A stretch of 64,000 bases of DNA from Bacteroidia bacterium (GTDB lineage Bacteria > Bacteroidota > Ignavibacteria > UBA10030). Below the pieces are notes generated by a model. The model did no database searches and was not told the DNA's origin. It saw nothing but the letters and a program-made list of their open reading frames with translations. Numbering within the stretch: the stretch's first letter is position 1; every line of letters starts with the position of its first letter. The position numbers and the translations under genes are program-made. The DNA lies in the NCBI GenBank assembly GCA_022180565.1, contig BQML01000029.1:18174-82173 (forward strand), in the 5' to 3' direction. Of the stretch, positions 5,832-49,338 are shown one piece after another.

Positions 5832-5841
5832 ATGGCACTGC

Positions 5842-7674: not shown

Positions 7675-7772
7675 ATACGTCATAGGATCTTGGACGTTCT
7701 GCAAAGGAAAGTGTTTCATGGCAAGAAAGAACCTGAATGTCCGGTCCTCTGTCGGTCGTCCAGAGTGAATGT

Positions 7773-8381
7773 TCAATCAGCACGTGAGACTACGCCCAAA
7801 TCCTGCAAAGCGTTTTCTAAACGTGCCGCTCCCTCAAACACTATCCCCACCATCCCTGCCTTCCGTGCCCCCTCCACATTTTCCGGAAGATCGTCGATAA
7901 AGGCGATGGTGTGCGCGGGAGCGCGAACGGTATCAAGAACGCGTGCGTAGTATTCGGGCGCCGGTTTCAGCGTTTTCATTTCCCACGAAAGAAAAAACCG
8001 CGGAATGAGGGAAAGAAAGCGAAATTGCCTGCGGCAATAGGCAAAATGCGTTTCATTCGTGTTGCTCGCCAGCGCAACAGGAACGGATGAACTGACGCGC
8101 TCAAGAAGTTCCGGCATTCCCGTAACCGCTTGCCCTATAACGCTTTCCATCGCCTCGGTAAGCTTCTCCCGTGCGTATTTTCCCTCGAAGATCTTATCCA
8201 GATTCCGGAAAAAGGTGTCAGAATCGATCTCTCCTTGTTCGTATCGGTGAATGAGGCGGAGAACGAGTGACCGGCGCATTTCCTTCCGTGCGTGATCCGT
8301 TCCGAGCGTTGCCGAAAACCGTTCGGGGTGGATTGTGACGAGGACATTTCCGAGGTCAAAGAGAACGTGAGAAATTCTGTT
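7773..8381 (-). CDS. HAD-superfamily hydrolase, subfamily IA (YihX-like sugar-phosphate phosphatase)
   Basis: Starts MNRISHVLFDLGNVLV (motif I, FDLGNV as in YihX) and has a C-terminal FIDDLPENVEGARKAGM motif IV. The ATG overlaps the stop of the upstream metallophosphoesterase (ATGA). The tracked ORF extends further 5' with no support. Confidence 0.7.
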   Translation of the reverse strand, partial: NRISHVLFDLGNVLVTIHPERFSATLGTDHARKEMRRSLVLRLIHRYEQGEIDSDTFFRNLDKIFEGKYAREKLTEAMESVIGQAVTGMPELLERVSSSVPVALASNTNETHFAYCRRQFRFLSLIPRFFLSWEMKTLKPAPEYYARVLDTVRAPAHTIAFIDDLPENVEGARKAGMVGIVFEGAARLENALQDLGVVSRAD

Positions 8382-33361: not shown

Positions 33362-34717
33362 ATGCGATTTCCGCGATGGCTGTTCCTGATGACGCTTGCA
33401 CTTCCGGTGCTCGCGGCCGGACAGGGAAGCTCATTCAAGGTCCCGGTTGAATACCACAAGCTCGACAATGGCCTCAAGGTTGTTCTTTCGCAGGATAAGA
33501 CTGCGCCGACGGTTGTCGTGGCTGTCTATTATAACATTGGGTTTCGAATCGAACCGCGCAACCGGACCGGCTTCGCGCATCTGTTCGAGCATATGATGTT
33601 CCAGGGCTCGCAGAACTTGGGAAAGATGGAGTTCATCCGGCTTGTGCAGAGCAACGGCGGAGTGTTGAACGGCTCTACGAGGTTCGACTTCACGAACTAT
33701 TTCGAAATCCTGCCCTCGCATAAGCTTGAAACGGCCCTTTGGGCGGAGGCTGACCGGATGAAAGGGCTTGCGATCACGCAGGACAACCTGACGAACCAGC
33801 AAGGAGTGGTCAAAAACGAAGTGAAGGTCAACGTGCTGAACAGGCCGTATGGAGGATTCCCCTGGCTCGATATGCCGCAATACGCCAACGAAAACTGGTA
33901 CAACGCGCACAACTTCTACGGCGAGTTGCATGATCTGGATGCGGCAACGCTGGAGGATGTCAAGAGTTTTTTTAAGACGTACTACGCTCCGAACAACGCG
34001 GCGCTTGTTGTGGTCGGCGACTTTGAACCGGCGGAAGCTCTCGGCATGATCAGGAAGTACTTCGGCTCCATTCCGTCTCAGCCGCAACCCGTCAAGCCGG
34101 ATCTGACCGAGCCGCGCCAGGAAAAGGCGAAATGGTTCACCAAGAATGACACGCTTGCTCATCGGCCCGCGATTGCCTTTGCATATCACATGCCCGAAAG
34201 GAATACCCCGGAATACTATGCGATGGGTCTTCTTGATCAGATCCTTCTTCAGGGGGATGACAGCAAGCTGATGCTGGAGCTCGCGAAGAAGAAAGGGTAC
34301 ACCGACAGGGTGATGGGCGGCATCAACCTGCTGGGGAACATGTTCAATTATAACGGACCGATGCTCTGGATGGGATGGCTCATCCATGATCCCTCCACAA
34401 AGCCGGAAGAGATCATGAAGACGGTCGATGAAGTGATCGAGGAAGCACGCACTCGGCCTGTGGCAAAAGCCGATCTGGATCGCGCGCTGGTCAAACTGCG
34501 CTCTGATCTCTACGACAACATGGGCGGGTTCTTTGGATTTGGCCGGGCAGACCTGCTGGCGGCGTTTGCGCTCTTTGACGACAATCCGTCGCGGATCAAC
34601 ACGCTTGAAGACGAGTTCAGAAAGATCACCCCGCAGCTTCTGCAAAAAACGGCGCAGGAGTACCTGCGGCCGACGAACCGGACCGTACTGGTTCTTCAAC
34701 CGAAAACAGGATCGTAA
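33362..34717 (+). CDS. M16-family zinc peptidase, catalytic subunit (HxxEH)
   Basis: Signal peptide; inverted zinc motif HLFEHMMFQGS with a downstream Glu; 451 aa. Confidence 0.85.
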   Translation: MRFPRWLFLMTLALPVLAAGQGSSFKVPVEYHKLDNGLKVVLSQDKTAPTVVVAVYYNIGFRIEPRNRTGFAHLFEHMMFQGSQNLGKMEFIRLVQSNGGVLNGSTRFDFTNYFEILPSHKLETALWAEADRMKGLAITQDNLTNQQGVVKNEVKVNVLNRPYGGFPWLDMPQYANENWYNAHNFYGELHDLDAATLEDVKSFFKTYYAPNNAALVVVGDFEPAEALGMIRKYFGSIPSQPQPVKPDLTEPRQEKAKWFTKNDTLAHRPAIAFAYHMPERNTPEYYAMGLLDQILLQGDDSKLMLELAKKKGYTDRVMGGINLLGNMFNYNGPMLWMGWLIHDPSTKPEEIMKTVDEVIEEARTRPVAKADLDRALVKLRSDLYDNMGGFFGFGRADLLAAFALFDDNPSRINTLEDEFRKITPQLLQKTAQEYLRPTNRTVLVLQPKTGS

Positions 34718-34723
34718 GGAGCG

Positions 34724-36115
34724 ATGACCATGAGATCGACAGGAATAGCCCTTGCACTTCTGCTGAGCGCATCCGTCGTTGTTGCCCAGAAAGAGCTTCC
34801 GCCCCCGGGCGGAAAGCCGAAGGACTTCACGCTTCCTCGCAAGACTCAAATAGCCCTTCCCAACGGCCTCACAGCCGTCCTTGTTCCATACGGCTCCCTG
34901 CCGAAAGTCACGGTGAGCGTTGTCGTCCGATCAGGGAACATCAATGAAAAAGAGAACGAGGTCTGGCTTGCGGATGTCATGGGAGACATGATGAAGGAGG
35001 GGACCAGAAGCCGGTCGGCTCAGCAAATTGCCGAAGAAGCAGCGTCCATGGGCGGTTCAGTGAACATTTCCACGGGTCTTGATCAAACAACGATCAACGG
35101 CGACGTTCTCACCGAGTACGGTCCCAACCTTGTGAATCTTCTGGCGGATATTGTCCGGAACCCTCTGTTTCCGGAGTCCGAGCTGCAGAGGATCAAGAAC
35201 GACCGGATCCGGCAGCTGACGGTGGCCAAATCATCTCCCCAGCAACAAACGCTGGAGCAGTTTCGACGCATCATCCACGGCAATCATGCGTATGGACGGA
35301 TCTTTCCGACGCAGGAAATGCTTGAAGGATACACCCTCGATCAAATCCGGAAATTCTATGAGAACAACTTCGGAGCCCGCCGCACCACCGTGTATGTCGC
35401 CGGTGTGTTCGATCTCGGAGTGATGGAGCAGGCGATTCGAAAGGAATTTTCGTCGTGGAAGTCTGGACCGGAGCCGCTGATCGACATTCCCACGCCTTCG
35501 ATGAAGAAGGCGTTTCATCTGATTGACAGGCCGGGGGCGCCCCAGTCCACCATCTACCTGGGACTCCCTGTTGCCAATCCGTATGACAAAGACTTTGTAC
35601 CTCTGGTCGTTACGAACGCCTTGCTGGGCGGATCATTCGGATCGAGGATTACGAGCAATATCAGGGAACAGAAAGGTTACACGTACTCGCCGTTCAGTCA
35701 ATTGTCCAGCCGGTATCGCGACGCCTACTGGGCCGAAGTGGCCGACGTGACGACGGACGTCACCGGTCCGGCTCTCAAGGAGATTTTCAAGGAGATCAGG
35801 AAGTTGCAGAATGAACCCCCGCCTGCCGAAGAATTGCAGGGGATCCAGAATTACCTGGCGGGAACCTTCGTGCTCCAGAACTCAAGCCCGGGCGGCATTA
35901 TTGGCCAGCTCGCATTTCTGAATCTCCACGGCCTCAGCGATGATTATCTCACGAAGTACGTTCAAAATGTCTACGCCGTGACGCCGCAGAAGGTATCGGA
36001 AATGACAAAGAAGTACATCCGGGAAGATAACATGACGCTGGTGATCACTGGCGACAAAAAGAAGATTGAATCGCAGATCGAGGAGTACGCGAAACCGGCG
36101 CCGGAGATGAAGTAA
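34724..36115 (+). CDS. M16-family peptidase, non-catalytic partner subunit
   Basis: Signal peptide; M16 fold features but no HxxEH; immediately downstream of the catalytic subunit. Confidence 0.8.
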   Translation: MTMRSTGIALALLLSASVVVAQKELPPPGGKPKDFTLPRKTQIALPNGLTAVLVPYGSLPKVTVSVVVRSGNINEKENEVWLADVMGDMMKEGTRSRSAQQIAEEAASMGGSVNISTGLDQTTINGDVLTEYGPNLVNLLADIVRNPLFPESELQRIKNDRIRQLTVAKSSPQQQTLEQFRRIIHGNHAYGRIFPTQEMLEGYTLDQIRKFYENNFGARRTTVYVAGVFDLGVMEQAIRKEFSSWKSGPEPLIDIPTPSMKKAFHLIDRPGAPQSTIYLGLPVANPYDKDFVPLVVTNALLGGSFGSRITSNIREQKGYTYSPFSQLSSRYRDAYWAEVADVTTDVTGPALKEIFKEIRKLQNEPPPAEELQGIQNYLAGTFVLQNSSPGGIIGQLAFLNLHGLSDDYLTKYVQNVYAVTPQKVSEMTKKYIREDNMTLVITGDKKKIESQIEEYAKPAPEMK

Positions 36116-36124
36116 CCGGTCTGT

Positions 36125-36230
36125 CCCCCTCCGGAGAAATCCGAAATCTTCCTCGAAATGACGGGGAGAGACTTCGGATTTCTTCGCGTGGAGGGGGTGA
36201 GTGCCTTGGAATCCCTCCTTATTTTTTCTT
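36125..36230 (+). promoter_or_regulatory. Structured leader / terminator: long imperfect hairpin overlapping a GC hairpin plus T-tract
   Basis: CCCCCTCCGGAGAAATCCGAAATCT ... AGACTTCGGATTTCTTCGCGTGGAGGGGG forms a ~22-bp interrupted stem. Its 3' arm shares GGAGGG with a second hairpin, GGAGGG-17nt-CCCTCC, which is followed by TTATTTTTTC. Confidence 0.3.
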
Positions 36231-36267
36231 ACACTTCTTGAACCTCCTTCCATCGTATGGTGAGCCC

Positions 36268-38427
36268 ATGAACCTTGGTCGTTTTCTTTCCGTTGTCTCA
36301 GGCCTCGTGCTTGTCATTCTTGCGGCAAGATTGGACGTTTTTGCCGATGAGGGCATGTACCCCATCAGCGAAATCCACAAACTGAATCTGAAAAGCCTTG
36401 GCTTTGAGCTTTCCGCCGACGAACTCTACCATCCGAACGGCGTGAGCCTTATCGACGCCATTGTGAACGTTGGAGGATGCACGGGATCCTTCGTTTCCGC
36501 AGAAGGGCTTGTCATCACAAACCATCATTGTGTTTTCGGTGCCCTCAGCAACGCCAGCTCCGCGGAGCATGATTATGTCACGCATGGCTTTCTCGCGGCG
36601 ACCCGGGCCGATGAACTCCGCGCAACCGGTATGACCATCAGAATCACGGAATCCTACCGTGACGTTTCGTCCGAGATTCTTTCGGACGTTACCGAATCGA
36701 TGCTTCCTGCCGAACGGACGAAGGCGATCCAAAAACGGATGCGCGAAGTGACCGAGGAAGCTGAAAAAGCTCATCCGGGAAAACAGGCGCTCGTTGCCGA
36801 GATGTTTGCAGGAAAAACCTATGTACTCTTCCTGTATGCGCAGATCCGCGATGTTCGGCTCGTTTATGTTCCGCAACGCGCGATCGGAGAATTCGGCGGT
36901 GAGGATGACAACTGGGTATGGCCGCGGCACACGGGCGACTTCTCCTTTGTGCGGGCCTATGTGGCGCCGGATGGATCTCCTGCCGAGTACTCCAAAGACA
37001 ACGTTCCCTACAAGCCTCGCCGATATCTGAAAGTAAATCCCAACGGCGTGGACGAGAACGACTTCGTGTTCATTCTGGGCTACCCCGGACGGACCTTCCG
37101 GCACCAACCGTCCGGCTTCATCCGTTATGACGAGCAAGTACGGCTAAAGACCATTGCCGACTTCTACGAATGGCAGATTCGCTTTCTCGAACAGCTCGGC
37201 AAAGACGACAGGGAGATCGCCCTGAAATTCGATTCCCGCATCAAGTCCCTCTCGAACGTCATGAAGAACTATCGCGGCAAGCTGAAGGGATTGAAACAAC
37301 TTCACCTCGTGCAGCGGAAATTGGAGGAAGAAAAGGCCCTGACAGAATTCATCGAAGGCTCTGCAGAGCGAAAGAGGACGTATGGATCCGTTCTGAAAAC
37401 ACTGAACGCCGTGTACGATGAGATGATTCAACAGGCTGACCGGGAGCTCCTCTTGGACCAGTTCGTGAGTACACCGACGCTCCTTTCACGGGCCGCGATG
37501 CTGTACCGTGCGGCGCTGGAACGGGCAAAACCTGAGGACGAACGTCCGGCGGCTTACAAGGACAAGAACTACGACCGCTTTAAACAGAACGCCATCCGTT
37601 CCCTCCAGCAATACTATGAACCGGCCGACAAGGGCCTGCTGAGGGAACTCTTGCGCCGAGCCGCCCTGTTGCCGGAGTCTGCTCGTATCAAAGAGCTTGA
37701 ATCCCTTACAAGGTCGGATCAAGCCATTGAAGATTTTCTTCAGAAGTCATATGGATCCACCGTCCTCACCTCGGAAGACAGGATCAAGGAACTCCTCGAT
37801 GCGTCACCCGACGGACTCGAATCGCTGCGCGACCCGTTCCTGAACCTGGCTGTCAAGCTGGAGCCGGTTTACAAGGCGCTGGCAGATGCTCGGGAACGCC
37901 GCTCCGGAATTTTGAGCAGAGAGTATCCGCTGTATGTGGATGTTAAGGAACAGTTCCAGAAAGCCAAATTCATTCCCGATGCCAATGGAACCCTGCGCCT
38001 GACATTCGGACGAATCAAGGGATATTCGCCCGCGGATGCCGTGTACTATAGCCCGATCTCGACGCTTGCCGGCGTCATCCAGAAGTCGAGCGGAGAGCCG
38101 CCATTCTACAACACCCCGGAAAAACTGCTGAAGCTGGCGAGGGAAGGCATGTACGGAAGGTATGCGCACAAGCGATTGAACAGCGTGCCGGTCGGAATAC
38201 TCTATAACACCGACACAACCGGCGGGAATTCGGGAAGTCCGGTCATGAATGCGCGGGGAGAACTCGTTGGCGTAAATTTCGATCGAGCGTATGAAGCGAC
38301 GATCAATGACTATGCCTGGAGCGACTCTTACAGCCGCTCCATCGCCGTTGACATCCGCTACGTTTTGTGGGTGACGAAGTATGTGGGCGGAGTTGATTAT
38401 CTGCTCAAAGAGATGGGAGTGGAATAG
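36268..38427 (+). CDS. S46-family dipeptidyl-peptidase (DPP7/DPP11-like serine peptidase)
   Basis: Signal peptide MNLGRF...; GLVITNHHC (catalytic His region); Asp region; GGNSGSPV (catalytic Ser) near the C-terminus; large helical insertion. ATG at 36268 preferred over the tracked TTG at 36238. Confidence 0.8.
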   Translation: MNLGRFLSVVSGLVLVILAARLDVFADEGMYPISEIHKLNLKSLGFELSADELYHPNGVSLIDAIVNVGGCTGSFVSAEGLVITNHHCVFGALSNASSAEHDYVTHGFLAATRADELRATGMTIRITESYRDVSSEILSDVTESMLPAERTKAIQKRMREVTEEAEKAHPGKQALVAEMFAGKTYVLFLYAQIRDVRLVYVPQRAIGEFGGEDDNWVWPRHTGDFSFVRAYVAPDGSPAEYSKDNVPYKPRRYLKVNPNGVDENDFVFILGYPGRTFRHQPSGFIRYDEQVRLKTIADFYEWQIRFLEQLGKDDREIALKFDSRIKSLSNVMKNYRGKLKGLKQLHLVQRKLEEEKALTEFIEGSAERKRTYGSVLKTLNAVYDEMIQQADRELLLDQFVSTPTLLSRAAMLYRAALERAKPEDERPAAYKDKNYDRFKQNAIRSLQQYYEPADKGLLRELLRRAALLPESARIKELESLTRSDQAIEDFLQKSYGSTVLTSEDRIKELLDASPDGLESLRDPFLNLAVKLEPVYKALADARERRSGILSREYPLYVDVKEQFQKAKFIPDANGTLRLTFGRIKGYSPADAVYYSPISTLAGVIQKSSGEPPFYNTPEKLLKLAREGMYGRYAHKRLNSVPVGILYNTDTTGGNSGSPVMNARGELVGVNFDRAYEATINDYAWSDSYSRSIAVDIRYVLWVTKYVGGVDYLLKEMGVE

Positions 38428-38445
38428 GAAAGCAGAGGAGTCAGG

Positions 38446-38907
38446 ATGCCGGAAACAGATCCGAGAGTAGCCGAGCTTCACGCACGGAAGATCACGCCGG
38501 AGGAATACCACGAAATCCGCCGGCTATGGCAGGTGCATTCGATTGCAGAGGATCGGAGAGACATCCCAGGCTTGATTTCAACTCTGACCGAGGACTGTGT
38601 GTACGAACTCGTGCAAACCGGACATCGCTGGCCGGGGCACGACGGTGCCCGCCGATTCTATACGGAAATGCTTGAGGCTTTTCCCGACATTCACTTTGTA
38701 TTGCGGAACATCGTGATTGGCCCGCAGGGAGTCTTCGAAGAAGCCCGCGTCACCGCCACCCACATAGGACGCTGGCTTCATTTTCCCCCCCCGTCGAACC
38801 GTCCGATAGAGTTCGACGTGCTGATCCTTTTTCCGTGGAATCCTCATCGAAAGAAATTCACCGGGGAACGCGTGTGGTTCAATCTTCCCCCCGCACGTTC
38901 CTTCTGA
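38446..38907 (+). CDS. SnoaL-like / NTF2-fold protein
   Basis: 153 aa; length and secondary-structure pattern of a ketosteroid-isomerase-like (alpha+beta cone) fold; weak motif support. Confidence 0.5.
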   Translation: MPETDPRVAELHARKITPEEYHEIRRLWQVHSIAEDRRDIPGLISTLTEDCVYELVQTGHRWPGHDGARRFYTEMLEAFPDIHFVLRNIVIGPQGVFEEARVTATHIGRWLHFPPPSNRPIEFDVLILFPWNPHRKKFTGERVWFNLPPARSF

Positions 38908-38911
38908 CCTC

Positions 38912-40432
38912 GTGCTCCTCCATCATCGTTTCATTGAACAGGCGAAGAAATTCGGATCGAAAGTTGCCGTCATCGACCGTACGCTCAATCGCCGGCTCAC
39001 CTATTCAAAGCTCCTCATCGCGTCCCTGATTCTCTCTCGGATGTTGAAGCAGTACGATGCGGGCTTTCTCGGCATCATGCTGCCGACATCTGCCGGTGCC
39101 GTGCTTTCCGTCCTGGGGACCCTGATGAGCGGACGTGTACCGGTCATGATCAACTACTCGACGGGCGCAGCACAGAATGCCGTCTACGCTCAGCGCAAAT
39201 GCGGTTTCCGCACGATCCTCACGTCCCGTGCCTTTCTGCAGAAGATCCAATGCCATCCGGTGCCCGGTATGATCTTTGTGGAAGACCTCTTCGAACGTGT
39301 GACGTTGAAGGATAAGTTCACCGCCGCTGTCCGTTCGAAACTTCCGTTGCCGGTTTTGCTCAAATCCGTCCATGGTGGCAATGAAGAGGACAGCAGTGTC
39401 ATCCTCTTTACGAGCGGGAGTGAAAAAGAGCCCAAGGCGGTCGAGCTGTCTCACGAAAACATTGCCTCGAACGTCCGGAGTATTTCTTCCATTTTGGAAA
39501 TTTCAGAGTCCGACGTCTTCCTTGCAAATCTTCCGTACTTTCATATTTTCGGCTACACGGGCAATCTCTGGGCGCCGCTGTATCATGGCATGACGATGGT
39601 GACGTATGCGAATCCCCTCGACTACGGAGGAATCTGTGACAGTGTACGGGAGGAGCAGTGCACTCTCATGCTCGGAACTCCAAGCTTCTTCTCGGGGTAC
39701 TTGCGAAAATCCCGACCGGGCGATTTCCGCAGTGTGCGTCTGGCCGTCGTGGGAGCGGATAAGTGCCCTGACACGTTGAGACGTGAGTTTCTTGAGCGGC
39801 ATTCGCTTTCATTGCTCGAGGCGTACGGAACCACGGAAACCAGTCCCGGGATCTCAGTGAACACGCCGTCTGCCAACAAGCCCGGAAGCGTGGGGAGACC
39901 CGTACCCGGTGTCGAGGTTCGGATCGAACACTATGAAACCGGAGAAGCATGTGCGCCCGGCGAGATCGGAAAGATCCTCGTGCGAGGAAAGAATGTCATG
40001 AAAGGATACTTTGACGATTTCGAACAAACCTCACTGCATATCCGGCATGGATGGTACGACACGGGGGATATGGGGTACATGGATGAGGACGGATTTCTGT
40101 GGCATGTCGGCAGACTAAGACGATTTCTGAAGATCGGCGGAGAAATGGTCTCGCTCATTCGTGTGGAAGATGTTCTTGAGAGGTTCCTTCCTTCGGACAC
40201 AGCGTGTTGCGTTGTGGAGGTGCCGGATAACATCAAGGGAGCAAAGATTGTCGCCGTTGTTACCCGACCCGTGGACGAACGGGCGATTCTCAGGAACATG
40301 GCTCGCAGTCTTCCGAATATTGCCCTGCCCCGCCAATTTGTGGTCATGGACGAACTTCCCAAAATGGCTTCAGGAAAGATCGATTTCAGAAAAATCACCC
40401 AAACCGTTGGGGAGTTGCTCCAGGGTTCGTAG
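38912..40432 (+). CDS. AMP-binding acyl-CoA / acyl-ACP synthetase family protein
   Basis: ILFTSGSEKEPKAVELSH (AMP-binding motif I), YGTTE, GWYDTGDMG, and a C-terminal K (MASGKIDFRK). Confidence 0.85.
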   Translation: MLLHHRFIEQAKKFGSKVAVIDRTLNRRLTYSKLLIASLILSRMLKQYDAGFLGIMLPTSAGAVLSVLGTLMSGRVPVMINYSTGAAQNAVYAQRKCGFRTILTSRAFLQKIQCHPVPGMIFVEDLFERVTLKDKFTAAVRSKLPLPVLLKSVHGGNEEDSSVILFTSGSEKEPKAVELSHENIASNVRSISSILEISESDVFLANLPYFHIFGYTGNLWAPLYHGMTMVTYANPLDYGGICDSVREEQCTLMLGTPSFFSGYLRKSRPGDFRSVRLAVVGADKCPDTLRREFLERHSLSLLEAYGTTETSPGISVNTPSANKPGSVGRPVPGVEVRIEHYETGEACAPGEIGKILVRGKNVMKGYFDDFEQTSLHIRHGWYDTGDMGYMDEDGFLWHVGRLRRFLKIGGEMVSLIRVEDVLERFLPSDTACCVVEVPDNIKGAKIVAVVTRPVDERAILRNMARSLPNIALPRQFVVMDELPKMASGKIDFRKITQTVGELLQGS

Positions 40433-40531
40433 TCCATGGGGTCCAACCGTGGACTCCAAGGCAAAACCCGCCGGGCGGATTCGGGCGAGGCCTTGTGCAA
40501 CCTCCCGAAGGTTTTAGCGTATACTCCATGA

Positions 40532-42376
40532 GTGCACTATCGAGGAATCACGAGCATGCGCTGGAATTCTCTGATCGGCGTGGTGGTGCTGAGTGTGACT
40601 TTTCTCCAGACCGGCACGGCGAATCCCTCCGATCCTTCTCCTTCACCTCCAACCCGTATTGTTTCCCTCAAAGACTTTACCGAAACCGAAGTGAAAGGGG
40701 CCGGTTTCACCCTGGTCTCAAAAACCCGGCTGCATATTTTCGCTCTCGGCGGAGGCGACAAGGTATTCTGGCGGGATGTTTTTAATGATCCGGACGTGTC
40801 GCGCATGTATGCCGCCGGCTGGATTATCGATGCCTCGACGCGCGAGGTTGTGTGGGAAATGACGATGGATAATACGAGTGGAAAGGCGCACAAGCGCACG
40901 TTCGATGGATTCCTTGAGCTCGAAGCGGGGGACTATGAGATCTATTACGCAGCGCATGGATATTTTGAGAGTGGCGCGTTTTCCCATTCATCAATCAACA
41001 TCGACCGCCGGCCCGCTCATCGCTCTCACCGCACCGGATTTCGCTTCTTCGATTTTTTTTCCGACGACAGAGAGGACCTCTTCGATGAGTTCATGGACAA
41101 TGCCCGTGAATACGGGATTGAGCTTTTCGTGGATGAATCGGCCCGCGGGGTTGTGCGGATGTTTGATGTTCCGCGTGCGCTTCCAAACACGGTCTTCGAG
41201 GCCACAGGGCTTGGCGACAAAGTGTTTCTGCGACGGGGCCTGAAAGTGCTTGCCCCCACCGTGGTTCAGGTGTACGCGCTGGGCGAGGGACGCCGCCGTG
41301 GCGAGATCTCCGATCACGGGTGGATCGTCAATGCCGTCACACGGGAGCGTGTGTGGGACATGAATGATCGCAGTGTCCGGCATGCGGGCGGAGCGTCGAA
41401 GAACATCGTGTGGCGGGGTAACGTGGTCCTGGCGAAAGGAACGTACGAACTGTATTACGTAACCGATGATTCTCATTCGAACGACGATTGGAATGCAAAG
41501 CCGCCGTATGACCCTTTCAAGTACGGCGTCACACTCTCGGTGGAGCGACCATCGGACCGAAACAATATTGTACAGACCGACCGTTGGGAGCCGCCGAGCC
41601 AAACCATCGTTTCCCTTACGCGGGTCCGCGATGATGAATTTGTGAGCGCCGGTTTCACGCTGACGAAAGACATGCCTCTTTGGGTCTATGCGATCGGGGA
41701 ACGATCGGGGCGCCGGGCGTTTGCGGATTACGGGTGGATCGTTCGGGCCAGCGACCGCACTCGCGTGTGGTCCATGGAAAATCGTGAATCCCATCACGCA
41801 GGGGGTGCGGCCAAGAACCAGATGGTGGACGAGATCATCACCCTGCCTGCGGGGAGTTATATCGCCTACTATCAAACAGACGACTCGCACGCCTATGGAG
41901 AGTGGAACTCCGATCCTCCGTTCGACGAGGAAGCGTATGGCCTGAGCATCAGCGCGGTCGGTGAAGGATTCGACCCAAAGACCGTGAAGAAATTTGAAGA
42001 AGGTGAAGAAGAAGGCGTCATCGCCCAAATCATTCGCGTTCGGAACGACAGCCACATCAGAAAACGGTTCACGATCAAAAGCCCTACGAAGATTCAAATT
42101 TATGCGCTTGGGGAAGGAGTGGACCGGAGCATGGCGGATTATGGATGGATTGAGAACGTCAGCACGGGAAAGGTGGTGTGGGAAATGACCTATGGCATGA
42201 CCGACCGGGCGGGCGGGGCAAGGAAGAATCGGATGGTACGAACAGCGCTGATTCTTGATCCCGGTGAGTACGAGCTTCATTACCGGACAGACGGCTCACA
42301 TTCGTATAGCGCCTGGAACGACGATCCACCGGACGACAGGATGCATTGGGGAATCACAGTTTATAGGAGCGACTAG
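40532..42376 (+). CDS. Secreted protein of four tandem ~140-aa homologous repeats (unrecognised domain)
   Basis: Signal peptide, then four repeats sharing [FL]T[LI]...[VI]YA[LI]GEG...DYGWI.N..T..VVWEM......AGGA.KN.........G.YEL.Y.TD.SH....WN..PP.D....G[IL]. The tracked start is 40532; the ATG at 40556 (MRWNSLIGVVVLSV) is equally possible. Confidence 0.6.
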   Translation: MHYRGITSMRWNSLIGVVVLSVTFLQTGTANPSDPSPSPPTRIVSLKDFTETEVKGAGFTLVSKTRLHIFALGGGDKVFWRDVFNDPDVSRMYAAGWIIDASTREVVWEMTMDNTSGKAHKRTFDGFLELEAGDYEIYYAAHGYFESGAFSHSSINIDRRPAHRSHRTGFRFFDFFSDDREDLFDEFMDNAREYGIELFVDESARGVVRMFDVPRALPNTVFEATGLGDKVFLRRGLKVLAPTVVQVYALGEGRRRGEISDHGWIVNAVTRERVWDMNDRSVRHAGGASKNIVWRGNVVLAKGTYELYYVTDDSHSNDDWNAKPPYDPFKYGVTLSVERPSDRNNIVQTDRWEPPSQTIVSLTRVRDDEFVSAGFTLTKDMPLWVYAIGERSGRRAFADYGWIVRASDRTRVWSMENRESHHAGGAAKNQMVDEIITLPAGSYIAYYQTDDSHAYGEWNSDPPFDEEAYGLSISAVGEGFDPKTVKKFEEGEEEGVIAQIIRVRNDSHIRKRFTIKSPTKIQIYALGEGVDRSMADYGWIENVSTGKVVWEMTYGMTDRAGGARKNRMVRTALILDPGEYELHYRTDGSHSYSAWNDDPPDDRMHWGITVYRSD

Positions 42377-42518
42377 GCTGATCACGGGGTCAGAAATCCA
42401 AGGCGGAGAACCGAATACCCGCGGCCTAAGGCGGAAGGTTCTGTGAGTTCACATCGTTTGAGATGAATTTCCGTTCGCTGTCCTTCGGCGAACAACTGGT
42501 GCACCGGAGCAGGATATG

Positions 42519-42546
42519 CAGTGATGCTTCGGTGCATCTTTCTTTT
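42519..42546 (+). terminator. Candidate intrinsic terminator after the repeat-protein gene
   Basis: GATGC-ttcggt-GCATC hairpin followed by TTTCTTTTTCGC. Confidence 0.35.
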
Positions 42547-42573
42547 TCGCACGTTCCCCTGTATATTGTACCG

Positions 42574-43041
42574 ATGGTAATCTTCACGCTCTGTTTGTGG
42601 ATGTTCACGTCATTTTCTCTGGCCGCTCAGGAGCCGGAGATCCATGTCGTCATAAGAAAGGGCGGCTACACATTGACGGTTTTCAGGGGAGATTCCGCGT
42701 TGCGCGTGTTCCGCGTCGCCGTCGGCAAGAATCCCGGAAACAAACAACAACGGGGAGATTGGAGAACACCGGAGGGAACCTTCTCCATTGCGCACATCCA
42801 GCGATCCAACCACTGGGTTCATGATTTTGGCGACGGAAAAGGGGAGGTCAAGGGGGCATACGGACCGTGGTTTATCAGATTGCAAACCGGCCGGTGGACA
42901 GGCATCGGAATCCACGGCACCCATGATCCGGCTTCCCTTGGTACGATGGTAACCGAAGGGTGCGTGAGGCTTCGCAATGAGGATTTGGAGGAACTTCAGA
43001 CCATGGTGACGATCGGCACGCGCGTTGCTATTCTTCCGTAA
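42574..43041 (+). CDS. L,D-transpeptidase (YkuD domain) with N-terminal signal/anchor
   Basis: ...GIHGTHDPASLGTMVTEGCVRLRNEDL, the His/Cys catalytic motif of L,D-transpeptidases. Start set at the ATG downstream of the terminator-like hairpin; the tracked ORF starts at 42463. Confidence 0.75.
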   Translation: MVIFTLCLWMFTSFSLAAQEPEIHVVIRKGGYTLTVFRGDSALRVFRVAVGKNPGNKQQRGDWRTPEGTFSIAHIQRSNHWVHDFGDGKGEVKGAYGPWFIRLQTGRWTGIGIHGTHDPASLGTMVTEGCVRLRNEDLEELQTMVTIGTRVAILP

Positions 43042-43090
43042 CTGCATTCATTGCTTCTGCTTTCTCCTTCCCCTATATTCGTCGAGCACC

Positions 43091-43564
43091 ATGGCCATTC
43101 AAATCCGACAAGCGAGGCCTGAAGACGCTCCTCTGATTGCTCAGTACAACGCCTTCATGGCGTTGGAAACCGAAAACCGGGTTTTGGATCAGGACACGTT
43201 ACGGAAAGGCGTGGAAACGGTCCTGACCAATCCGGTGTGCGGAGTGTACTACCTCGCCGAGATCGACGGCCGTCTTGCGGGACAGCTGATGATCACATAC
43301 GAATGGAGCGATTGGCGCAATGGCACGTTCTGGTGGATCCAGAGCGTATACGTGAGGGAAGAGTATCGACAAAAAGGCGTCTTCAAGGCACTCTATCGTT
43401 TTGTGGAATCACAGGCGCGTTCGAAGCCGGATGTCTGTGGTCTCCGCCTCTACGTGGAGCATGACAATGCCAAGGCGAAACGTATTTATGAGAACCTCGG
43501 CATGAAAAAGACGGCCTATGAGCTCTATGAGCTGGATTTTGTGCTCGGGAAGGGCTCTTCATGA
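43091..43564 (+). CDS. GNAT-family N-acetyltransferase
   Basis: 157 aa; acetyl-CoA-binding motif region (V..EYRQKGVFKALY); start at ATG 43091. Confidence 0.7.
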   Translation: MAIQIRQARPEDAPLIAQYNAFMALETENRVLDQDTLRKGVETVLTNPVCGVYYLAEIDGRLAGQLMITYEWSDWRNGTFWWIQSVYVREEYRQKGVFKALYRFVESQARSKPDVCGLRLYVEHDNAKAKRIYENLGMKKTAYELYELDFVLGKGSS

Positions 43565-44208
43565 ATTGTTGCCCGGTGTCCCCATGTCCCGGCACAAACC
43601 GGTTCTTCACCCGCTGGGCGAAGAATTACGCGAAGCAATTCAGAAAAAAAGGGCTCGACAAAGCTCAGCAATATCTTCTTGAAGGCATTGCCCGCGTGCC
43701 GATTGCCGCACCGGAGGTTTTGGACATCGGTTGCGGCGTGGGTGCAGTCCATTTGGTCCTGCTCCAACAAGGCGCATCGCGGGTGACGGGTGTTGATATG
43801 GCTGAAGGCATGCTGGCCGAGGCAAGGCGGCTGGCGGAAGAGAAACAGCTCGCCGATAGAACATCCTACATTCAAAACGATTTCATCACAATCTCTCATC
43901 AGGTTCCCCAGGCCGACATTACCATCCTGGACAAGGTCGTGTGTTGTTATGAAAAAGCCGACGACCTTGTCGAAGGTTCACTGAATAAGACAAAACGAAT
44001 TTACGCCGTCACGCATCCAAGAGAATCCTTCATCGTTCGCTGGGGGTTCCTGCTGTATATCGCATTCTCCCAATTTGTTCGAGCCGCATTCCACCCCTAC
44101 TGGCACAACTGGCAGAACCTTCGATCCGCGATCTCTGCACGCGGGTTCAGGCTTGTCTATGAGAACTCCACTTTTTTCTGGAACGTCCTGGTATTTGAGC
44201 GCGCCTAG
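43561..44208 (+). CDS. Class I SAM-dependent methyltransferase
   Basis: VLDIGCGVGAV (motif I) and an acidic residue at the end of beta2; overlaps the GNAT stop (ATGA). Confidence 0.65.
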   Translation: MNCCPVSPCPGTNRFFTRWAKNYAKQFRKKGLDKAQQYLLEGIARVPIAAPEVLDIGCGVGAVHLVLLQQGASRVTGVDMAEGMLAEARRLAEEKQLADRTSYIQNDFITISHQVPQADITILDKVVCCYEKADDLVEGSLNKTKRIYAVTHPRESFIVRWGFLLYIAFSQFVRAAFHPYWHNWQNLRSAISARGFRLVYENSTFFWNVLVFERA

Positions 44209-44220
44209 CGGACTCCCCAG

Positions 44221-45525
44221 ATGAATTCCCTCGACACCCCAGCGTCACCCGGCGGGTACCATTCGGAAAACATCATTCTGATCGCGGCTGTGGCAATTCA
44301 TTGTTGTATGCTCCTGTCGCTCGGGATGGGGTTCCTCAATCCCCTCTTCGATGATGCCATGCACCGATCCGGGCAGGCCGCGGATTTTTTTGCCGTGTAC
44401 CAAGCCGGTACGAATCTTGTTGACGGCGTGAGTGTCTATTCGACATCGCCGGACCGTCAGTCGGTTCCCTATTACTATCCCTATCGATACCATCCGTTCG
44501 TGGCTCTTACTCTTGGGTTAGCGATCCAGCCGCTTCCGCCCTTTGTTGCGTACGGAATCTGGATCGTCCTCCTGGAGCTTATCCTCCTTGTCAATCTTAA
44601 ACTGACATGGTCGTTGTTCGACCGGAAATCCGACGCGGTGAAAGCTCTGGTCCTCTGGCTGGTGTTCTCGCCCATGTACCTTGAGCTCTATATGGGCCAA
44701 TTCTCTTACGCTATGGCGAGCATCATGTTCTGGTGCATCATCGCCTGGGCGCGGGGAAAGAGACTTCAAGGTGACCTGTGGTGGTCGCTCTCCCTTGTCC
44801 TGAAGTCCAATTCTGCGCTGTTCGCTCCCGTGTTGCTCCGCGAACGGAAGTGGCTCTCCATTTTCGCGGCAGGAGGGGCAGCCGTACTTGCCGGCCTGCC
44901 GTATTTTCTGGCGGTTCCCGGCAGTTACCCGGAATTCGCCCAAAACTACACTGCCCGTATGACGGTATCGACGCTTCTCGGAAACCAGGGATTTGCCGCC
45001 CTGATGGGGATGATGATCGTTCGAGCGTCGGGACTGTGGACGGGGGACCTTCACGTGCTGGGTCAGAGGGTTCCCCAGATGGACCAACTTATGGAAGTGC
45101 CGATTTTGATGTGGACCATGCTGATCATCGGAACGGCCCTGTATGTGACTTTCAAGTCTCAACGCCCCGAGGGACCTGAATTCTATCTCCTCTGGCTTCT
45201 GGCATACGTTCTCTTCTACAAGCACGTTTGGGAACATCAGTACGTCATGCTGCTTCCGGTCTTTGCGCTTTTGTACTGGCGAATGACCAGAGGGGGATTG
45301 AATCTCTCGCCGGTAATCTTTTGGTCCGTGTTTGCAGTTGTCGCCCTTCCGACGGTGTTCGTGTTTCTCGACCGCGCCCAGGTTCTGTTCGACCCCGAAC
45401 TGTCCTGGAATATCTGGGAAAGCGTGGCTTTCCATGCTCCCAAGCCGCTGGCTGTCCTTGTCCTGTTTGCGCATCTTTCCTCTGTCCTCTTGAAACCCTT
45501 CCCCCGGTTTGATCCTGCTCCATGA
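44221..45525 (+). CDS. Polytopic membrane protein, DUF2029 / GT87-like (putative glycosyltransferase)
   Basis: 434 aa with about 10 TM helices; early loop with aromatic/Pro-rich motif (YYYPYRYHPF) as in DUF2029 mannosyltransferase-like proteins. Confidence 0.5.
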   Translation: MNSLDTPASPGGYHSENIILIAAVAIHCCMLLSLGMGFLNPLFDDAMHRSGQAADFFAVYQAGTNLVDGVSVYSTSPDRQSVPYYYPYRYHPFVALTLGLAIQPLPPFVAYGIWIVLLELILLVNLKLTWSLFDRKSDAVKALVLWLVFSPMYLELYMGQFSYAMASIMFWCIIAWARGKRLQGDLWWSLSLVLKSNSALFAPVLLRERKWLSIFAAGGAAVLAGLPYFLAVPGSYPEFAQNYTARMTVSTLLGNQGFAALMGMMIVRASGLWTGDLHVLGQRVPQMDQLMEVPILMWTMLIIGTALYVTFKSQRPEGPEFYLLWLLAYVLFYKHVWEHQYVMLLPVFALLYWRMTRGGLNLSPVIFWSVFAVVALPTVFVFLDRAQVLFDPELSWNIWESVAFHAPKPLAVLVLFAHLSSVLLKPFPRFDPAP

Positions 45526-47459
45526 GGCTGAAGCAACAGCATATCGCGATCGTCGTCGCCGTGTTTGTGTGCATCGTCTTTTCCGCTGCAACGGGATCGT
45601 TCGCCTACTTTTCGAACAAAGGGTTCGGTTTTCCCCTGGATGATCCATGGATCCATCTCCAGTTCGCGAAGAATCTCGCTGAGCACGGAAGCTTCTCGTA
45701 CTACAAAGATGAAATGCCGACATCGGGCTCGACGGCGCCTCTCTATACTCTCCTGGCGGCCGCAGGATTCCTGGTGACGCATCACGAGATGATCCTGAGT
45801 TATGTCCTCGGTGTACTGGCCTATATTGTCGCGATCGTGTATTTCTTCAAGCTCACGGAGCGCGTGTTCGACGGCGCAATTCTTCCCGCACTTGCAGGCA
45901 CGGTCCTGTTCGCCCTCGAGCCGCGTCTGCACTGGGCCGCGCTTTCCGGAATGGAAACAACGCTTTTCATCGCGCTCTTGCTTGCGGCCGTTCATTCCTA
46001 TCAGTCGCAAAAAGGCATCATGCTCGGCATTGTGAGCGGATTACTGCTCTGGACACGGCCCGAAGCAGTTATCCTCTACGCGGCGATGGCGGCAGATTGG
46101 GGATTCCGACGGTTAACCGTACCCGGAGCTGAACGGAAGGCCTTATGGTCACGGTCTCCCTGGCTGGTCCAGGCAGGGGCAATCGCCTGTGTGCTGGGCT
46201 TGGGATATGCCGGCTTCAACCTCTCTCTCTCGGGATCCATTCTTCCAAACACCTATGCCGCCAAACTTGCGTACTACAGCGGTACCGGGACAGATTTTCC
46301 TCGTGCTGTCTTTCACTGGCTTACCGGCAACCACATTGTTATTGTTTCTGTCCTTGCAGGCGGAGGAATTCTTCAGTCTCTTTTTCAAGCGGTTCGACGA
46401 CAACCGTCGGACACCGTCCTTCCCCTTCTGTTCACTGTTGGCCTCTTCACCTCATACTGGATGAAGCTCCCCTATTTGTATCAGAACGGACGTTACATGA
46501 TGCCGATTCTGCCGTTTGTCATCCTCCTCGGCCTGTCGGGTCTGCACTGGATGTCGACGCGAGCGGGAGAGAGATTTTCCCGTCTGTTGTCTGCGCGTAC
46601 GATCCGAGCTGTACAGATAACCTTGATGGCCTTTCTCATCATCCAGTTCGCTCTGGGCGTCTGGGACGGAAGAGTTCTCTATCAGGAATCATGCAAGTAC
46701 ATCTCTGATCGCCAGGTCCGCACAGCTTTGTGGATTCGCGATCACCTTCCGCAGGATGCCATTGTCGCAACCCACGACGTGGGGGCGCTTGCATATTATT
46801 CGGAGAGACGCATTGTGGATATGGTAGGATTGATCTCCCCCGAAATCATTGATCATCTTAAGAACCTTTCCGCCACAAAGGAGTTTCTCGTTCGACACAA
46901 TGTCACCCACCTGGCTGTTCTTCGAAACTGGTTTGAAGTTGTGAATGTGAATCCGATCTTCCAGACCAGGGAAGCAACGCCGGAGATTATGGAGGTGTTC
47001 AGGTTCGAGCCGGACAGCCTCCATTTTACCTCGCCTTTCGTCGCGTGGCTGACCTCTCGCGCATGGTCATATCTCTCACGCGGTGATGTGCGCGAGGGAA
47101 AACCTCTGGCAGAACGAGCCGTTCAGCTTGATTCCCTTTCTTCGCGGGCGCACCATCACCTTGGATGGGCTTTGATGATGGAGGGGGATTTGGACGGGGC
47201 GGAGCACGAATTTCACGCCGCACTTCGTCTTCATCCGGAATACTGGTCAGCCCATTTTGCCCTGACTCAGGTGCCTCTGCGAAGGGGCCAGCCGCTTGAG
47301 GCCGTTCGGCGCCTGAAACTCTTGCTCAAGGCGAATCCAAATATGCTTGCAGCCTATCAGGCGATTGCCCAGATTTACGGGCAGATGGGGGAAAACGAGA
47401 AGGCGGCGCAGGCGGCCCGTGAGTATCAGACGAGAATTGCCGCACAACAGAACGATTGA
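45522..47459 (+). CDS. GT-C-fold-like polytopic membrane protein (ArnT/PMT-like N-terminal region) with C-terminal TPR repeats
   Basis: 645 aa; about 11 TM helices with an Asp-rich first loop (PLDDPW); the C-terminal ~150 aa contain TPR-like repeats. Confidence 0.5.
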   Translation: MRLKQQHIAIVVAVFVCIVFSAATGSFAYFSNKGFGFPLDDPWIHLQFAKNLAEHGSFSYYKDEMPTSGSTAPLYTLLAAAGFLVTHHEMILSYVLGVLAYIVAIVYFFKLTERVFDGAILPALAGTVLFALEPRLHWAALSGMETTLFIALLLAAVHSYQSQKGIMLGIVSGLLLWTRPEAVILYAAMAADWGFRRLTVPGAERKALWSRSPWLVQAGAIACVLGLGYAGFNLSLSGSILPNTYAAKLAYYSGTGTDFPRAVFHWLTGNHIVIVSVLAGGGILQSLFQAVRRQPSDTVLPLLFTVGLFTSYWMKLPYLYQNGRYMMPILPFVILLGLSGLHWMSTRAGERFSRLLSARTIRAVQITLMAFLIIQFALGVWDGRVLYQESCKYISDRQVRTALWIRDHLPQDAIVATHDVGALAYYSERRIVDMVGLISPEIIDHLKNLSATKEFLVRHNVTHLAVLRNWFEVVNVNPIFQTREATPEIMEVFRFEPDSLHFTSPFVAWLTSRAWSYLSRGDVREGKPLAERAVQLDSLSSRAHHHLGWALMMEGDLDGAEHEFHAALRLHPEYWSAHFALTQVPLRRGQPLEAVRRLKLLLKANPNMLAAYQAIAQIYGQMGENEKAAQAAREYQTRIAAQQND

Positions 47460-47460
47460 A

Positions 47461-49338
47461 ATGATTCCGATGTTGAGGAACAACATGAAGAACGGCCGCT
47501 GGATCCTGATGATCGTTCTTGTGCTCGCCGTCCATCGCGTGCCTCTGATGGGACAGGAGCCCGAAGCGATCGTGAAATTGCGCCTGGCTCAGAGTTTCGA
47601 AAGGGCGGGCGACTGGGAACGCGCCGTGCCCATCTATGAATCACTTCTCCTGACCGATCCGCGAAACTACGTTTATTTTGAGGCACTTCGCCGTGGCTAC
47701 GTTCAGCTTCGGGAGTATGACAAGGCGGTTGAATTGATCGAATATCGCCTCACGTTGGAGCAAAACAACCCCCAACTGCTCGCCACGCTGGGGAGCGTGT
47801 ACTACCAAATGGGGAAAGAATCTACGGCTGATTCGCTCTGGCAGGCCGTGGTACGGCTTGATTCAAAGAACCCCTCCATGTACCGGCTGATCGCCGGTCA
47901 GATGCTGGAATTCCGTCTGTATGACCGGGCAATTGACCTGTTCACGCGGGCACGCAAGATCACGGGTGACCCACACCTGTTTCTCAGTGAACTCGCCAAC
48001 CTCTATGGAGCCTTTCAACAGTACGGCAGGGCGGCGGAGGAATTCGTGCAGTTGCTCGTGCTTCAACCCGCCCAGCTCTCCGACATACAGTCAAGGATAT
48101 CTGTGTTCTTCGGCCGGCCTGAAGCGATCACGGCAACACGAGAAGTCGTTGCGCGAGCACTCACCAAGCGCGAGGATTTCGTTCCTCTCCGACAGTTCTA
48201 TGCCTGGGTGTTGATGGAAGAGAAGCGGTACGACGCAGCGTTGGAACAGTACCGGATTATTGACAGGACAATGCGGGCGAGGGGAGCGCAGTTGTTCAAG
48301 TTTGCGGAGCGGGCCGCGGACGAGGGGGAGTATCGCATTGCAGCGTCTGCCTGCGATGAAGCGTTGAAAGCAGATCCCCCGACCGAACTTATCCCGCTCA
48401 TCCGTCTGAAGTATGCGCGTGCCATTGAAGAGTTGACGATCGACCAAGACACGACGGCGGCTCCTCCCGCACCGCGAAGGGCAATTCCGGAAAGCGCCCT
48501 CTCTTCCGGAACAGCCCTGAAGCTGTATGCTTCGGTTGCACAGGAGTACTCCGGCACGCGGCATGCAGCACAAGCATATTTTCGGATGGGGATTCTTCAG
48601 AGAGACCGTTTCCGTGATCTGGATGCAGCTTTGGCAGCTTTTAATGAGGCGGTTCGGGCCGGAGCGGGTCTCCCAGTCGCCGAGAAAGCCCTCCTGGAGA
48701 GGGCCGATGTTTTGGTGGCGAAGAATGATCTCGAAAAGGCACGCGAAACGTACACGTTATTGTCGTCATCTCGATCGGCCGACATGCGCGACCGCGCATT
48801 GTTTCATCTGGCGGAACTGGACTACTACACGGCGGAATTCGATTCCGCTCTGGCAGTGCTGGGCCGTCTGGCCGCCCAGCCGGCTACAGACCTGGCAAAC
48901 GATGCGCTGAGCCTGCGGTATTTTATTGAAGAGAATCACGGGCTGTTCACAGAAGCATTGAAGGCTTATGCTTCGGCGGACTTGCTCTGTCGACAGAAAA
49001 GAGACTCGGAGGCGCTTGAAGCCTTCCGGTCCATTCTGCGTCGGTTTCCAACCGCCCTCCTCGCGGACGATGCAGCGTTCACCGTGGGCGAACTCCTCGT
49101 TCGCCTGCGCCGGTACGACGACGCAGTGAAAGCCTTTCGGAGCATAGCCGACGATATGCCGTCAAGTATTCTGCGGGATCTGGCTTTGATGAGGATAGGT
49201 GAGGTTTACGAAAGGGAAATGCATGTTTCTCCCCTGGCCATTGAAACATATGAGGAACTCCTCAGATTGTTTCCGGGTTCCATCCACGCAGAAGAGGCGC
49301 GGAAACGTATCCGGCGACTCAGGGGGGATGTGTTATGA
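47461..49338 (+). CDS. Tetratricopeptide-repeat protein with N-terminal signal/anchor
   Basis: About 625 aa consisting almost entirely of TPR-like helical repeats; start at ATG 47461, overlapping the previous stop. Confidence 0.6.
   Translation: MIPMLRNNMKNGRWILMIVLVLAVHRVPLMGQEPEAIVKLRLAQSFERAGDWERAVPIYESLLLTDPRNYVYFEALRRGYVQLREYDKAVELIEYRLTLEQNNPQLLATLGSVYYQMGKESTADSLWQAVVRLDSKNPSMYRLIAGQMLEFRLYDRAIDLFTRARKITGDPHLFLSELANLYGAFQQYGRAAEEFVQLLVLQPAQLSDIQSRISVFFGRPEAITATREVVARALTKREDFVPLRQFYAWVLMEEKRYDAALEQYRIIDRTMRARGAQLFKFAERAADEGEYRIAASACDEALKADPPTELIPLIRLKYARAIEELTIDQDTTAAPPAPRRAIPESALSSGTALKLYASVAQEYSGTRHAAQAYFRMGILQRDRFRDLDAALAAFNEAVRAGAGLPVAEKALLERADVLVAKNDLEKARETYTLLSSSRSADMRDRALFHLAELDYYTAEFDSALAVLGRLAAQPATDLANDALSLRYFIEENHGLFTEALKAYASADLLCRQKRDSEALEAFRSILRRFPTALLADDAAFTVGELLVRLRRYDDAVKAFRSIADDMPSSILRDLALMRIGEVYEREMHVSPLAIETYEELLRLFPGSIHAEEARKRIRRLRGDVL

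Follow-up and report, generated by a model that had tools for sequence, protein, structure and literature searches.

A four-unit tandem repeat protein with an export signal and a predicted jelly-roll fold represents an uncatalogued sequence family

We analysed a 64,000-nucleotide (nt) stretch of contig BQML01000029.1 (positions 18,174 to 82,173 of the forward strand; assembly GCA_022180565.1) from a Bacteroidia bacterium placed by GTDB in the Ignavibacteria. This stretch is referred to as the window, and positions are given in its numbering unless a locus is named. The gene under study encodes a protein composed of four tandem repeat units (R1–R4) and is followed by a gene for a YkuD L,D-transpeptidase (Table 1). 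The mechanical open reading frame (ORF), 40532..42376 (+), opens at GTG 40532 and defines a 614-amino-acid (aa) numbering. However, the true start is likely ATG 40556 rather than GTG 40532, because a GAGGA motif lies 9 nt upstream of the ATG and because the database protein P0001, which is 100% identical and begins MRWNS, is 606 aa long; reading the sequence directly, we found no Shine-Dalgarno-like motif before GTG 40532. Of the 614-aa product with a signal peptide described in an earlier, sequence-only reading of this DNA, the signal-peptide-like N-terminus is therefore retained, and the length is probably 606 aa.

In the N-terminus of the 606-aa protein (MRWNSLIGVVVLSVTFLQTGTA), a basic residue is combined with a hydrophobic core and with a c-region of small residues, and the AlphaFold2 (AF2) full-length model contains a low-confidence helix at residues 7–16 within this segment. 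Across 262 full-length homologues, a crude hydrophobicity test detects a hydrophobic N-terminal segment in 234, whereas just 12 show a lipobox-like pattern. The mature protein contains no Cys (the family median is one) and has an isoelectric point of ~5.4 and a mass of ~66 kDa. The absence of Cys and the rarity of the lipobox-like pattern speak against a bacterial lipoprotein. Features of type IX secretion system cargo are likewise lacking, since the protein terminates with R4 and has no Pfam match to Por_Secre_tail or to the type B sorting domain; Por_Secre_tail is found on neighbouring genes at other loci, so this profile is detectable in these genomes.

Table 1. Features of the repeat gene and its immediate downstream neighbour, in window positions
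Feature	Position	Strand	Basis and remarks
Coding sequence of the four-repeat protein	40556..42376	+	606 aa plus stop; ORF list and translation
GAGGA Shine-Dalgarno-like motif	40542..40546	+	9 nt before ATG 40556; read from sequence
Signal-peptide-like N-terminus (MRWNSLIGVVVLSVTFLQTGTA)	40556..40621	+	No lipobox Cys; cleavage site inferred
Unit R1, degenerate jelly-roll copy	40652..41131	+	Unit HMM, self-BLAST; AF2 strands 33–148 and 187–192
Insert in R1, before its last strand	41006..41113	+	Residues ~151–186 (606-aa numbering); low-confidence loop, then helix
Unit R2, canonical	41186..41545	+	Unit HMM 163.9 bits; self-BLAST
Unit R3, canonical	41597..41959	+	Unit HMM 165.6 bits; self-BLAST
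Unit R4, canonical	42005..42370	+	Unit HMM 170.2 bits; protein ends here, no C-terminal sorting domain
YkuD L,D-transpeptidase gene	42463..43041	+	Pfam YkuD 82 bits; context only, adjacency kept in close relatives

Comparison of the protein with itself confirms the four tandem homologous units proposed in the sequence-only reading. In a self-BLAST by quarters, every quarter of the protein recovers the other three units, revealing a four-fold periodicity. R2, R3 and R4 share 40–44% identity with one another over 103–117 aa (90–100 bits), whereas R1 shares 30–36% identity with the other units (44–50 bits). Furthermore, a unit hidden Markov model (HMM) built from homologues identifies exactly four domains, at aa 42–143, 219–338, 356–476 and 492–613 of the 614-aa numbering, with scores of 51, 164, 166 and 170 bits for R1, R2, R3 and R4, respectively. 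Against the repeat length of ~140 aa given earlier, the unit itself is ~120 aa, and the spacing of R2–R4 is ~137 aa. R1 spans ~160 aa owing to an insertion of ~40 residues ahead of its last strand. In the AF2 model, this region has a predicted local distance difference test score (pLDDT) below 50 at residues 156–169, followed by a helix at 170–183 and a strand at 187–192, and the insert is a gap in the alignment with R2–R4. The blocks YA[LI]GEG, DYGWI, AGGA.KN, G.YEL.Y.TD.SH and WN..PP.D, which had been ascribed to every unit, are all present, but R1 lacks most of them.

The repeat protein is a member of a large family. A word-indexed search recovered 2116 homologous proteins, and over 2000 family sequences are counted at the 90% level. 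The best 120 of the 2116 homologues are almost all 590–640 aa in length, with 48–87% identity. The source names seen are all 'hypothetical protein', except for two automatic 'transthyretin family' labels. An exhaustive search with the unit profile gave 1179 representatives of clusters at 50% identity, of which 417 reach E ≤ 1e-30. Among the best 150 of these 1179 representatives, the number of units ranges from three to six and is most often four. Four of the five proteins with five or six units begin with an R1-type unit and then carry extra canonical units; the fifth, P0123, is a partial record.

A search of GTDB species genomes identified 426 loci with a relative. The best 80 of these loci are all from metagenome-assembled genomes (MAGs), labelled Ignavibacteria, Ignavibacteriota or 'Bacteroidota bacterium' with a few odd labels. 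Names given to more distant members are those of Fodinibius/Aliifodinibius (Balneolales), Zixibacteria, and Candidatus Eiseniibacteriota. The nearest relative, from an Ignavibacterium sp. MAG, is 87% identical and lies in identical synteny, which places the window in an Ignavibacteria bacterium. The odd labels, assigned automatically, include Chlorobiaceae as well as Chitinophagaceae, 'Chitinophaga pinensis' and 'Synechococcus sp. UW140', the last three being found among L016, L018, L026, L027, L034, L040 and L044; we suspect that they are wrong, because readable flanks (e.g. in L016, L018, L040 and L044) show the Bat-operon/transketolase synteny of Ignavibacteria. One MAG (OBJ_0618_7090110_39) carries two members, 46% identical, on two contigs (L049, 1185–2930; L059, 6001–7776), which could be paralogues in one genome or a binning artefact.

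The repeat had been described as a domain of no recognised family, and database searches bear this out. The whole protein matches no family in NCBIfam, or in Pfam at E ≤ 0.1, and a Pfam search at E ≤ 1 with 36 isolated units from diverse homologues returned only noise (AMPK1_CBM, DUF5013, WD40_Prp19 and Transthyretin, one or two units each). Searches of PDB sequences with phmmer and with the unit profile in hmmsearch gave only chance matches (E 0.45 and 1.4). No profile match to a characterised family was obtained. Ten longer family members contain no fused informative domain detectable by Pfam, and the extra length in both multi-unit members scanned consists of further repeat units. The 'PF25942' and JGI 'transthyretin family' labels carried by a few homologues could not be reproduced by hmmscan at E ≤ 10 and were set aside as faint or noise.

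The architecture, however, appears to be that of an ordinary jelly-roll. The AF2 model of the full-length protein, calculated with 92 homologues, has a pLDDT of 84.8 and a predicted template modelling score (pTM) of 0.78, and the model of a single R4 unit, calculated with 36 pooled units, has a pLDDT of 93 and a pTM of 0.87 and forms a beta-sandwich of eight strands. The top structural matches of the unit model are the pre-peptidase C-terminal (PPC) and collagen-binding domains of Bacillus and clostridial collagenases. Other matches include the C-terminal jelly-rolls of secreted proteases and one lipase, CUB and GOLD domains, the C-terminal domain of Clostridium perfringens enterotoxin, a PllA-like lectin domain, and two carbohydrate-binding modules (CBMs), all at 8–19% identity. 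Foldseek concurs, at E ~5e-4 and with most TM-scores under 0.5, and extends the matches to CBM6, CBM35, and viral haemagglutinin receptor-binding domains; given the full-length model as query, it retrieves multi-CUB and multi-CBM proteins. As modelled, the fold is a common jelly-roll binding or accessory module of PPC/collagen-binding/CUB type, and the sequence family is uncatalogued.

To define residue conservation, 1074 units from 269 proteins were aligned to the unit HMM and sorted by position, using four-unit proteins. In R2–R4 (255 proteins × 3 units), the positions conserved at ≥90% read GE..D..W..W..AGG..KN..D.SH..WN..P and comprise, in context, the Glu after YAxG, Asp-x-Gly-Trp, a Trp, Ala-Gly-Gly-x-x-Lys-Asn, Asp-x-Ser-His, Trp-Asn, and a Pro. 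On the strands of the single-unit AF2 model, G-E falls at the end of beta3, D-x-x-W in beta4, and the second W in beta5; A-G-G-x-x-K-N lies just before beta6, and L-x-x-G-x-Y, conserved to the same degree, occupies the beta6–beta7 turn and beta7; D-x-S-H follows immediately after beta7, W-N and P are located in the long beta7–beta8 loop, and a G stands at the start of beta8. R1 retains only the framework (GWI, R, VW, L..G.YE) and lacks GE, D, AGGxxKN, DxSH and WN. R1 instead carries its own invariant motif, INIDRR, in which N148, D150, R151 and R152 (606-aa numbering) are invariant. Units at the same position are 36–49% identical across species (diagonal), compared with 27–42% between positions (off-diagonal).

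If the strands are taken as running alternately up and down, the beta3–beta4, beta5–beta6 and beta7–beta8 connections should all fall at one end of the sandwich, and the beta6–beta7 turn at the opposite end. Because the strand order places these three connections at the same end, the polar and aromatic invariant residues may form one putative apex site per canonical unit. The conserved L and G at the other end, in the beta6–beta7 turn, are of structural type. The conservation of acidic, His and Trp positions pointed out in the sequence-only reading holds across 255 diverse proteins, but in R2–R4, and fits a binding or catalytic site better than low-complexity repetition.

In the window, the repeat gene stands in the order M16, M16, S46 peptidase, SnoaL-like, AMP-binding acyl-ACP-synthetase-like, repeat gene, YkuD, GNAT, methyltransferase, GT87, and TPR/GT-C-like. 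In the upstream region at 33362–40432, the two M16 genes and the S46 (DPP7/DPP11-like) gene form a same-strand run, all three with products that have signal-peptide-like N-termini, and after S46 come the SnoaL-like gene and a gene for an AMP-binding enzyme resembling the acyl-ACP synthetase half of Aas-type acyltransferases, with a score of 493 bits to PRK08633 that is under that model's cut-off. The gene downstream of the repeat gene does encode an L,D-transpeptidase, as had been read, and follows after a spacer of 86 nt. The terminator-like hairpin that had been placed between the two is not supported: no terminator pattern is present at 42377–42462, and the fold of the spacer is no more stable than that of shuffled sequences (z = −0.10). 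A pattern scan of 40300–42600 detected no sigma-70-type promoter; these phyla may use another promoter consensus. A 429-aa antisense ORF (40991–42280, −) lies wholly inside the repeat gene and is most likely a shadow ORF, because homologues of the plus-strand frame number in the thousands and its GC content by codon position is as expected (0.64 at the third position versus 0.44 at the second).

Beyond YkuD, positions 43025–50609 encode GNAT, an S-adenosylmethionine-dependent methyltransferase, a GT87-like membrane glycosyltransferase, a large TPR protein (45522–47459) with a weak PMT_2 (GT-C) match, and two long ORFs, whose counterparts at locus L001 are a second TPR protein and one protein without a Pfam match. 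This block is kept in relatives (L001, L006) at 64–87% identity and looks like an envelope glycosylation cluster, with no link to the repeat gene outside this clade. More generally, relatives at 54–87% identity keep all or part of the window gene order.

To survey neighbourhoods across the family, ORFs were called and neighbours clustered in 86 loci and the window, and six further loci of distant members were added, giving 93 places; no universal gene neighbour of the repeat family was found among them. YkuD is directly downstream in seven of the 93 places, all within one clade and one of them counted twice (L001 is the same as L007), so its adjacency, and with it a role as operon partner, is not conserved across the family. 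In the commonest arrangement (~25 loci), a Bat aerotolerance operon and an AHSA1-like gene precede the repeat gene, and transketolase, DUF1761 and phosphodiesterase genes follow it. Specifically, L002–L004 and ~20 more loci have a complete same-strand Bat-type operon upstream (MoxR ATPase, DUF58, BatA/BatB VWA proteins, BatD, and a TPR-SH3 protein), often with the AHSA1-like gene between and with spacers of ~100–200 nt. An ABC transporter lies upstream in opposite orientation at 12 loci, the order S46 – TauE – repeat gene – FkpA is found at ~5 loci (FkpA being directly downstream in seven), and a divergent M16 pair is found at three. The spacers on both sides of the repeat gene are usually 85–300 nt, which suggests that the gene may have its own transcription signals. 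Among distant members, L087 has radical SAM and MazG genes nearby, L089 has amino-acid metabolism genes, and in L090 (Eiseniibacteriota) the member is flanked by a PMT_2/TPR GT-C gene on one side and a GT9 glycosyltransferase gene on the other. TldD/PmbA metalloprotease pairs, in differing orientations, flank two very distant members, in L091 (Zixibacteria; 3744–6532) and L092 (9162–11866), which are ~30% identical to each other.

One tightly spaced neighbour recurs across two classes, and it is the only one to do so: a gene of ~470–520 aa that resembles Omp85/DUF5686 (Pfam DUF5686 8.7e-9, Omp85 3.2e-8), with no POTRA domain detected by Pfam. This gene is directly downstream in five Ignavibacteria loci (L070, L078, L082, L083 and L084), with spacers of 16–47 nt in four of them and 160 nt in one. 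In the Balneolales MAG locus L088, it is directly upstream (6429–7988), with a spacer of 13 nt, and opens the run Omp85 – repeat protein – DUF4097 – Tricorn/PD40 propeller – second Omp85. The Ignavibacteria and Balneolales barrels are orthologous (36–42% identity, E 1e-69 to 1e-80) with the gene order inverted. The 64-kb window contains no Omp85/DUF5686 gene, and a literature search on DUF5686 yielded nothing useful.

From these observations, the interpretation that we favour, though with somewhat less than even confidence, is that the repeat protein, exported and soluble, binds a repeating ligand in a multivalent manner. The Cys-free protein would be exported through the Sec pathway and would reside in the periplasm or at the cell surface as a string of four ~120-aa jelly-roll modules, the first degenerate and the other three canonical. 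Three equivalent loop-apex sites, one per canonical module, would bind a glycan or peptide polymer of repetitive structure, in the envelope or outside the cell, possibly with the assistance of a bound metal such as Ca2+; the action would be multivalent binding rather than catalysis, with R1 in the role of a structural cap or adaptor module. We prefer this interpretation because the fold neighbours are nearly all binding or accessory modules, because the conserved residues are of the types Trp, Asp, Glu, Asn, His and Lys, because the units are arranged in tandem with variable copy number, and because there is no enzyme-family signal. Copy number varies through added canonical units, with R1 remaining in first place in the four complete proteins of five or six units, a pattern typical of binding arrays that act by avidity. 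Several points weigh against a binding protein of this kind. The geometry of a single site per unit is read from strand parity. The conservation is unusually high for a lectin-like protein, with 45–50% identity across the class and a fixed length and unit order, and could mean a housekeeping or enzymatic role. The invariant D-x-S-H, K and E would also suit catalysis, and no conserved gene neighbour points to a substrate.

An enzymatic role is improbable in our view. Each canonical unit could be a small enzyme, or the units could jointly form one, with Asp-x-Ser-His, Glu, Lys and Asn as catalytic residues, for example of an envelope-polymer hydrolase or lyase. The extreme conservation of these charged and nucleophilic residues in all three canonical units of 255 proteins, together with a housekeeping-like degree of conservation and a fixed architecture across several phyla, is in keeping with such a role; however, the top structural matches are non-catalytic modules, no enzyme family was matched in Pfam, NCBIfam or PDB sequences, and three tandem catalytic jelly-rolls of 120 aa would be unusual. 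The same structural matches would also accommodate an accessory protein that captures substrates for, or regulates, periplasmic peptidases in the manner of a free-standing PPC/collagen-binding module, which we consider highly unlikely. PPC and collagen-binding modules are normally fused to secreted proteases, and the fold is nearest to these modules and to the C-terminal domains of such proteases. Signal-peptide-bearing M16, M16 and S46 proteins are encoded just upstream in the window, S46 lies within four genes at ten loci, and an M16 pair is present in eight places, but the arrangements differ, the M16/S46 neighbourhood may be synteny inherited within one class, and ~25 of the 86 loci have the Bat operon and transketolase instead of a nearby peptidase. 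The TldD/PmbA pairs at two loci might be read in the same sense, but these proteins have no signal peptide and for this reason are unlikely to co-localise with an exported repeat protein.

Two further alternatives are suggested by gene neighbours. The repeat protein might be the cargo or partner of an orphan Omp85-family (DUF5686-type) barrel that exports it or anchors it at the surface, a role that is unlikely overall and that would be compatible with binding. The mostly tight pairing in five Ignavibacteria loci and one Balneolales locus, with barrels orthologous across both classes despite reversed gene order, argues for this possibility; however, the pairing is seen in only six of the 93 places and most members stand in unrelated contexts, the repeat protein has no secretion domain of the two-partner secretion (TPS) type and no beta-helix, and the barrel family is uncharacterised. 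We give a still smaller chance to a bolder combination, in which a new domain family confined to Ignavibacteria, Balneolales, Zixibacteria and Eiseniibacteriota would constitute, with the orphan barrel, a new two-partner surface system, the barrel exporting or anchoring a protein with three identical metal-assisted sites for an envelope or environmental polymer. The neighbours in the window would point elsewhere, to a peptidoglycan or cell-envelope factor acting with the adjacent L,D-transpeptidase and the GNAT/methyltransferase/GT87/GT-C cluster, which includes the cell-envelope role proposed in the sequence-only reading. The gene order with YkuD is kept in relatives at 54–87% identity, and the Eiseniibacteriota member also lies beside glycosyltransferase genes. 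However, the YkuD neighbourhood is limited to one clade, at least five quite different contexts are found elsewhere in the family, the 86-nt spacer lacks operon-like tightness, and Pfam detects no LysM, SPOR or PG_binding domain in the whole protein; we therefore did not retain this role, which appears very improbable.

The family is large and conserved, has neither an entry in Pfam or NCBIfam nor an informative name in the sources consulted, and occurs in phyla for which nearly all knowledge comes from metagenomes. The unit boundaries, the layout of one degenerate and three canonical units, and the signature residues suffice to seed a domain model, which would improve the annotation of Ignavibacteria-type genomes. 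If the conserved apex is indeed a ligand or metal site, the family would represent a new specificity class among PPC/CUB-like jelly-roll modules. The pairing with Omp85/DUF5686 gives a lead, open to testing, on a barrel family that is uncharacterised. Otherwise, the protein is of an ordinary type, an exported tandem beta-sandwich, which answers no long-standing question and will not surprise a specialist.

Comparison with known modules places the repeat units closest to the PPC domain (PF04151) and to the s3a/s3b domains of ColG and s3 of ColH, with which they share a jelly-roll beta-sandwich of about 100–120 residues. Nevertheless, the identity to these domains is 15–16%, and neither the 36 units (E ≤ 1) nor the whole protein (E ≤ 0.1) gives a PPC match. 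PPC lies C-terminal to a secreted peptidase, whereas the repeat protein has no peptidase domain and consists of just a signal peptide and four units, with its own invariant motifs (AGGxxKN, DxSH, WN..PP) and a fixed layout of one degenerate and three canonical units. The Ca2+ site of PPC is built from acidic residues; conserved E, D, D and N residues are present in the canonical repeat units. CUB domains (complement C1r/C1s, MASP, neuropilin, cubilin, Kremen) differ in being eukaryotic, disulfide-containing and recognised by PF00431, whereas the repeat protein has neither Cys nor a PF00431 match.

Among carbohydrate-binding jelly-rolls, CBM6, CBM35, PA-IL/PllA-like domains, and the porphyran- and alginate-binding CBMs give no profile match to the repeat protein. 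CBMs and jelly-roll lectins with loop sites rank no better than protein-binding jelly-rolls as structural matches, and, unlike for such CBMs, no glycoside hydrolase is fused to the repeat protein or consistently adjacent to it. In several homologues, the R4 hairpin G-x-Y-E-L-x-Y-x-T-D-x-S-H..DWN gives a sub-threshold match to AMPK beta/CBM48 (PF16561), at best 25.3 bits against a cut-off of 26.8 and over profile positions 23–61 of 85; the window protein itself has no match, and AMPK1_CBM was matched by only two of the 36 units at E ≤ 1. We read these matches as probably reflecting a shared hairpin motif. A TpsA two-partner exoprotein was also considered and rejected, as there is no match to the haemagglutination-activity (TPS) domain and the predicted fold is a beta-sandwich, not a beta-helix. 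Taken together, the repeat protein represents a sequence family that is uncatalogued but familiar in fold, and that is marked by a distinctive signature and a fixed layout of one degenerate plus three canonical units.

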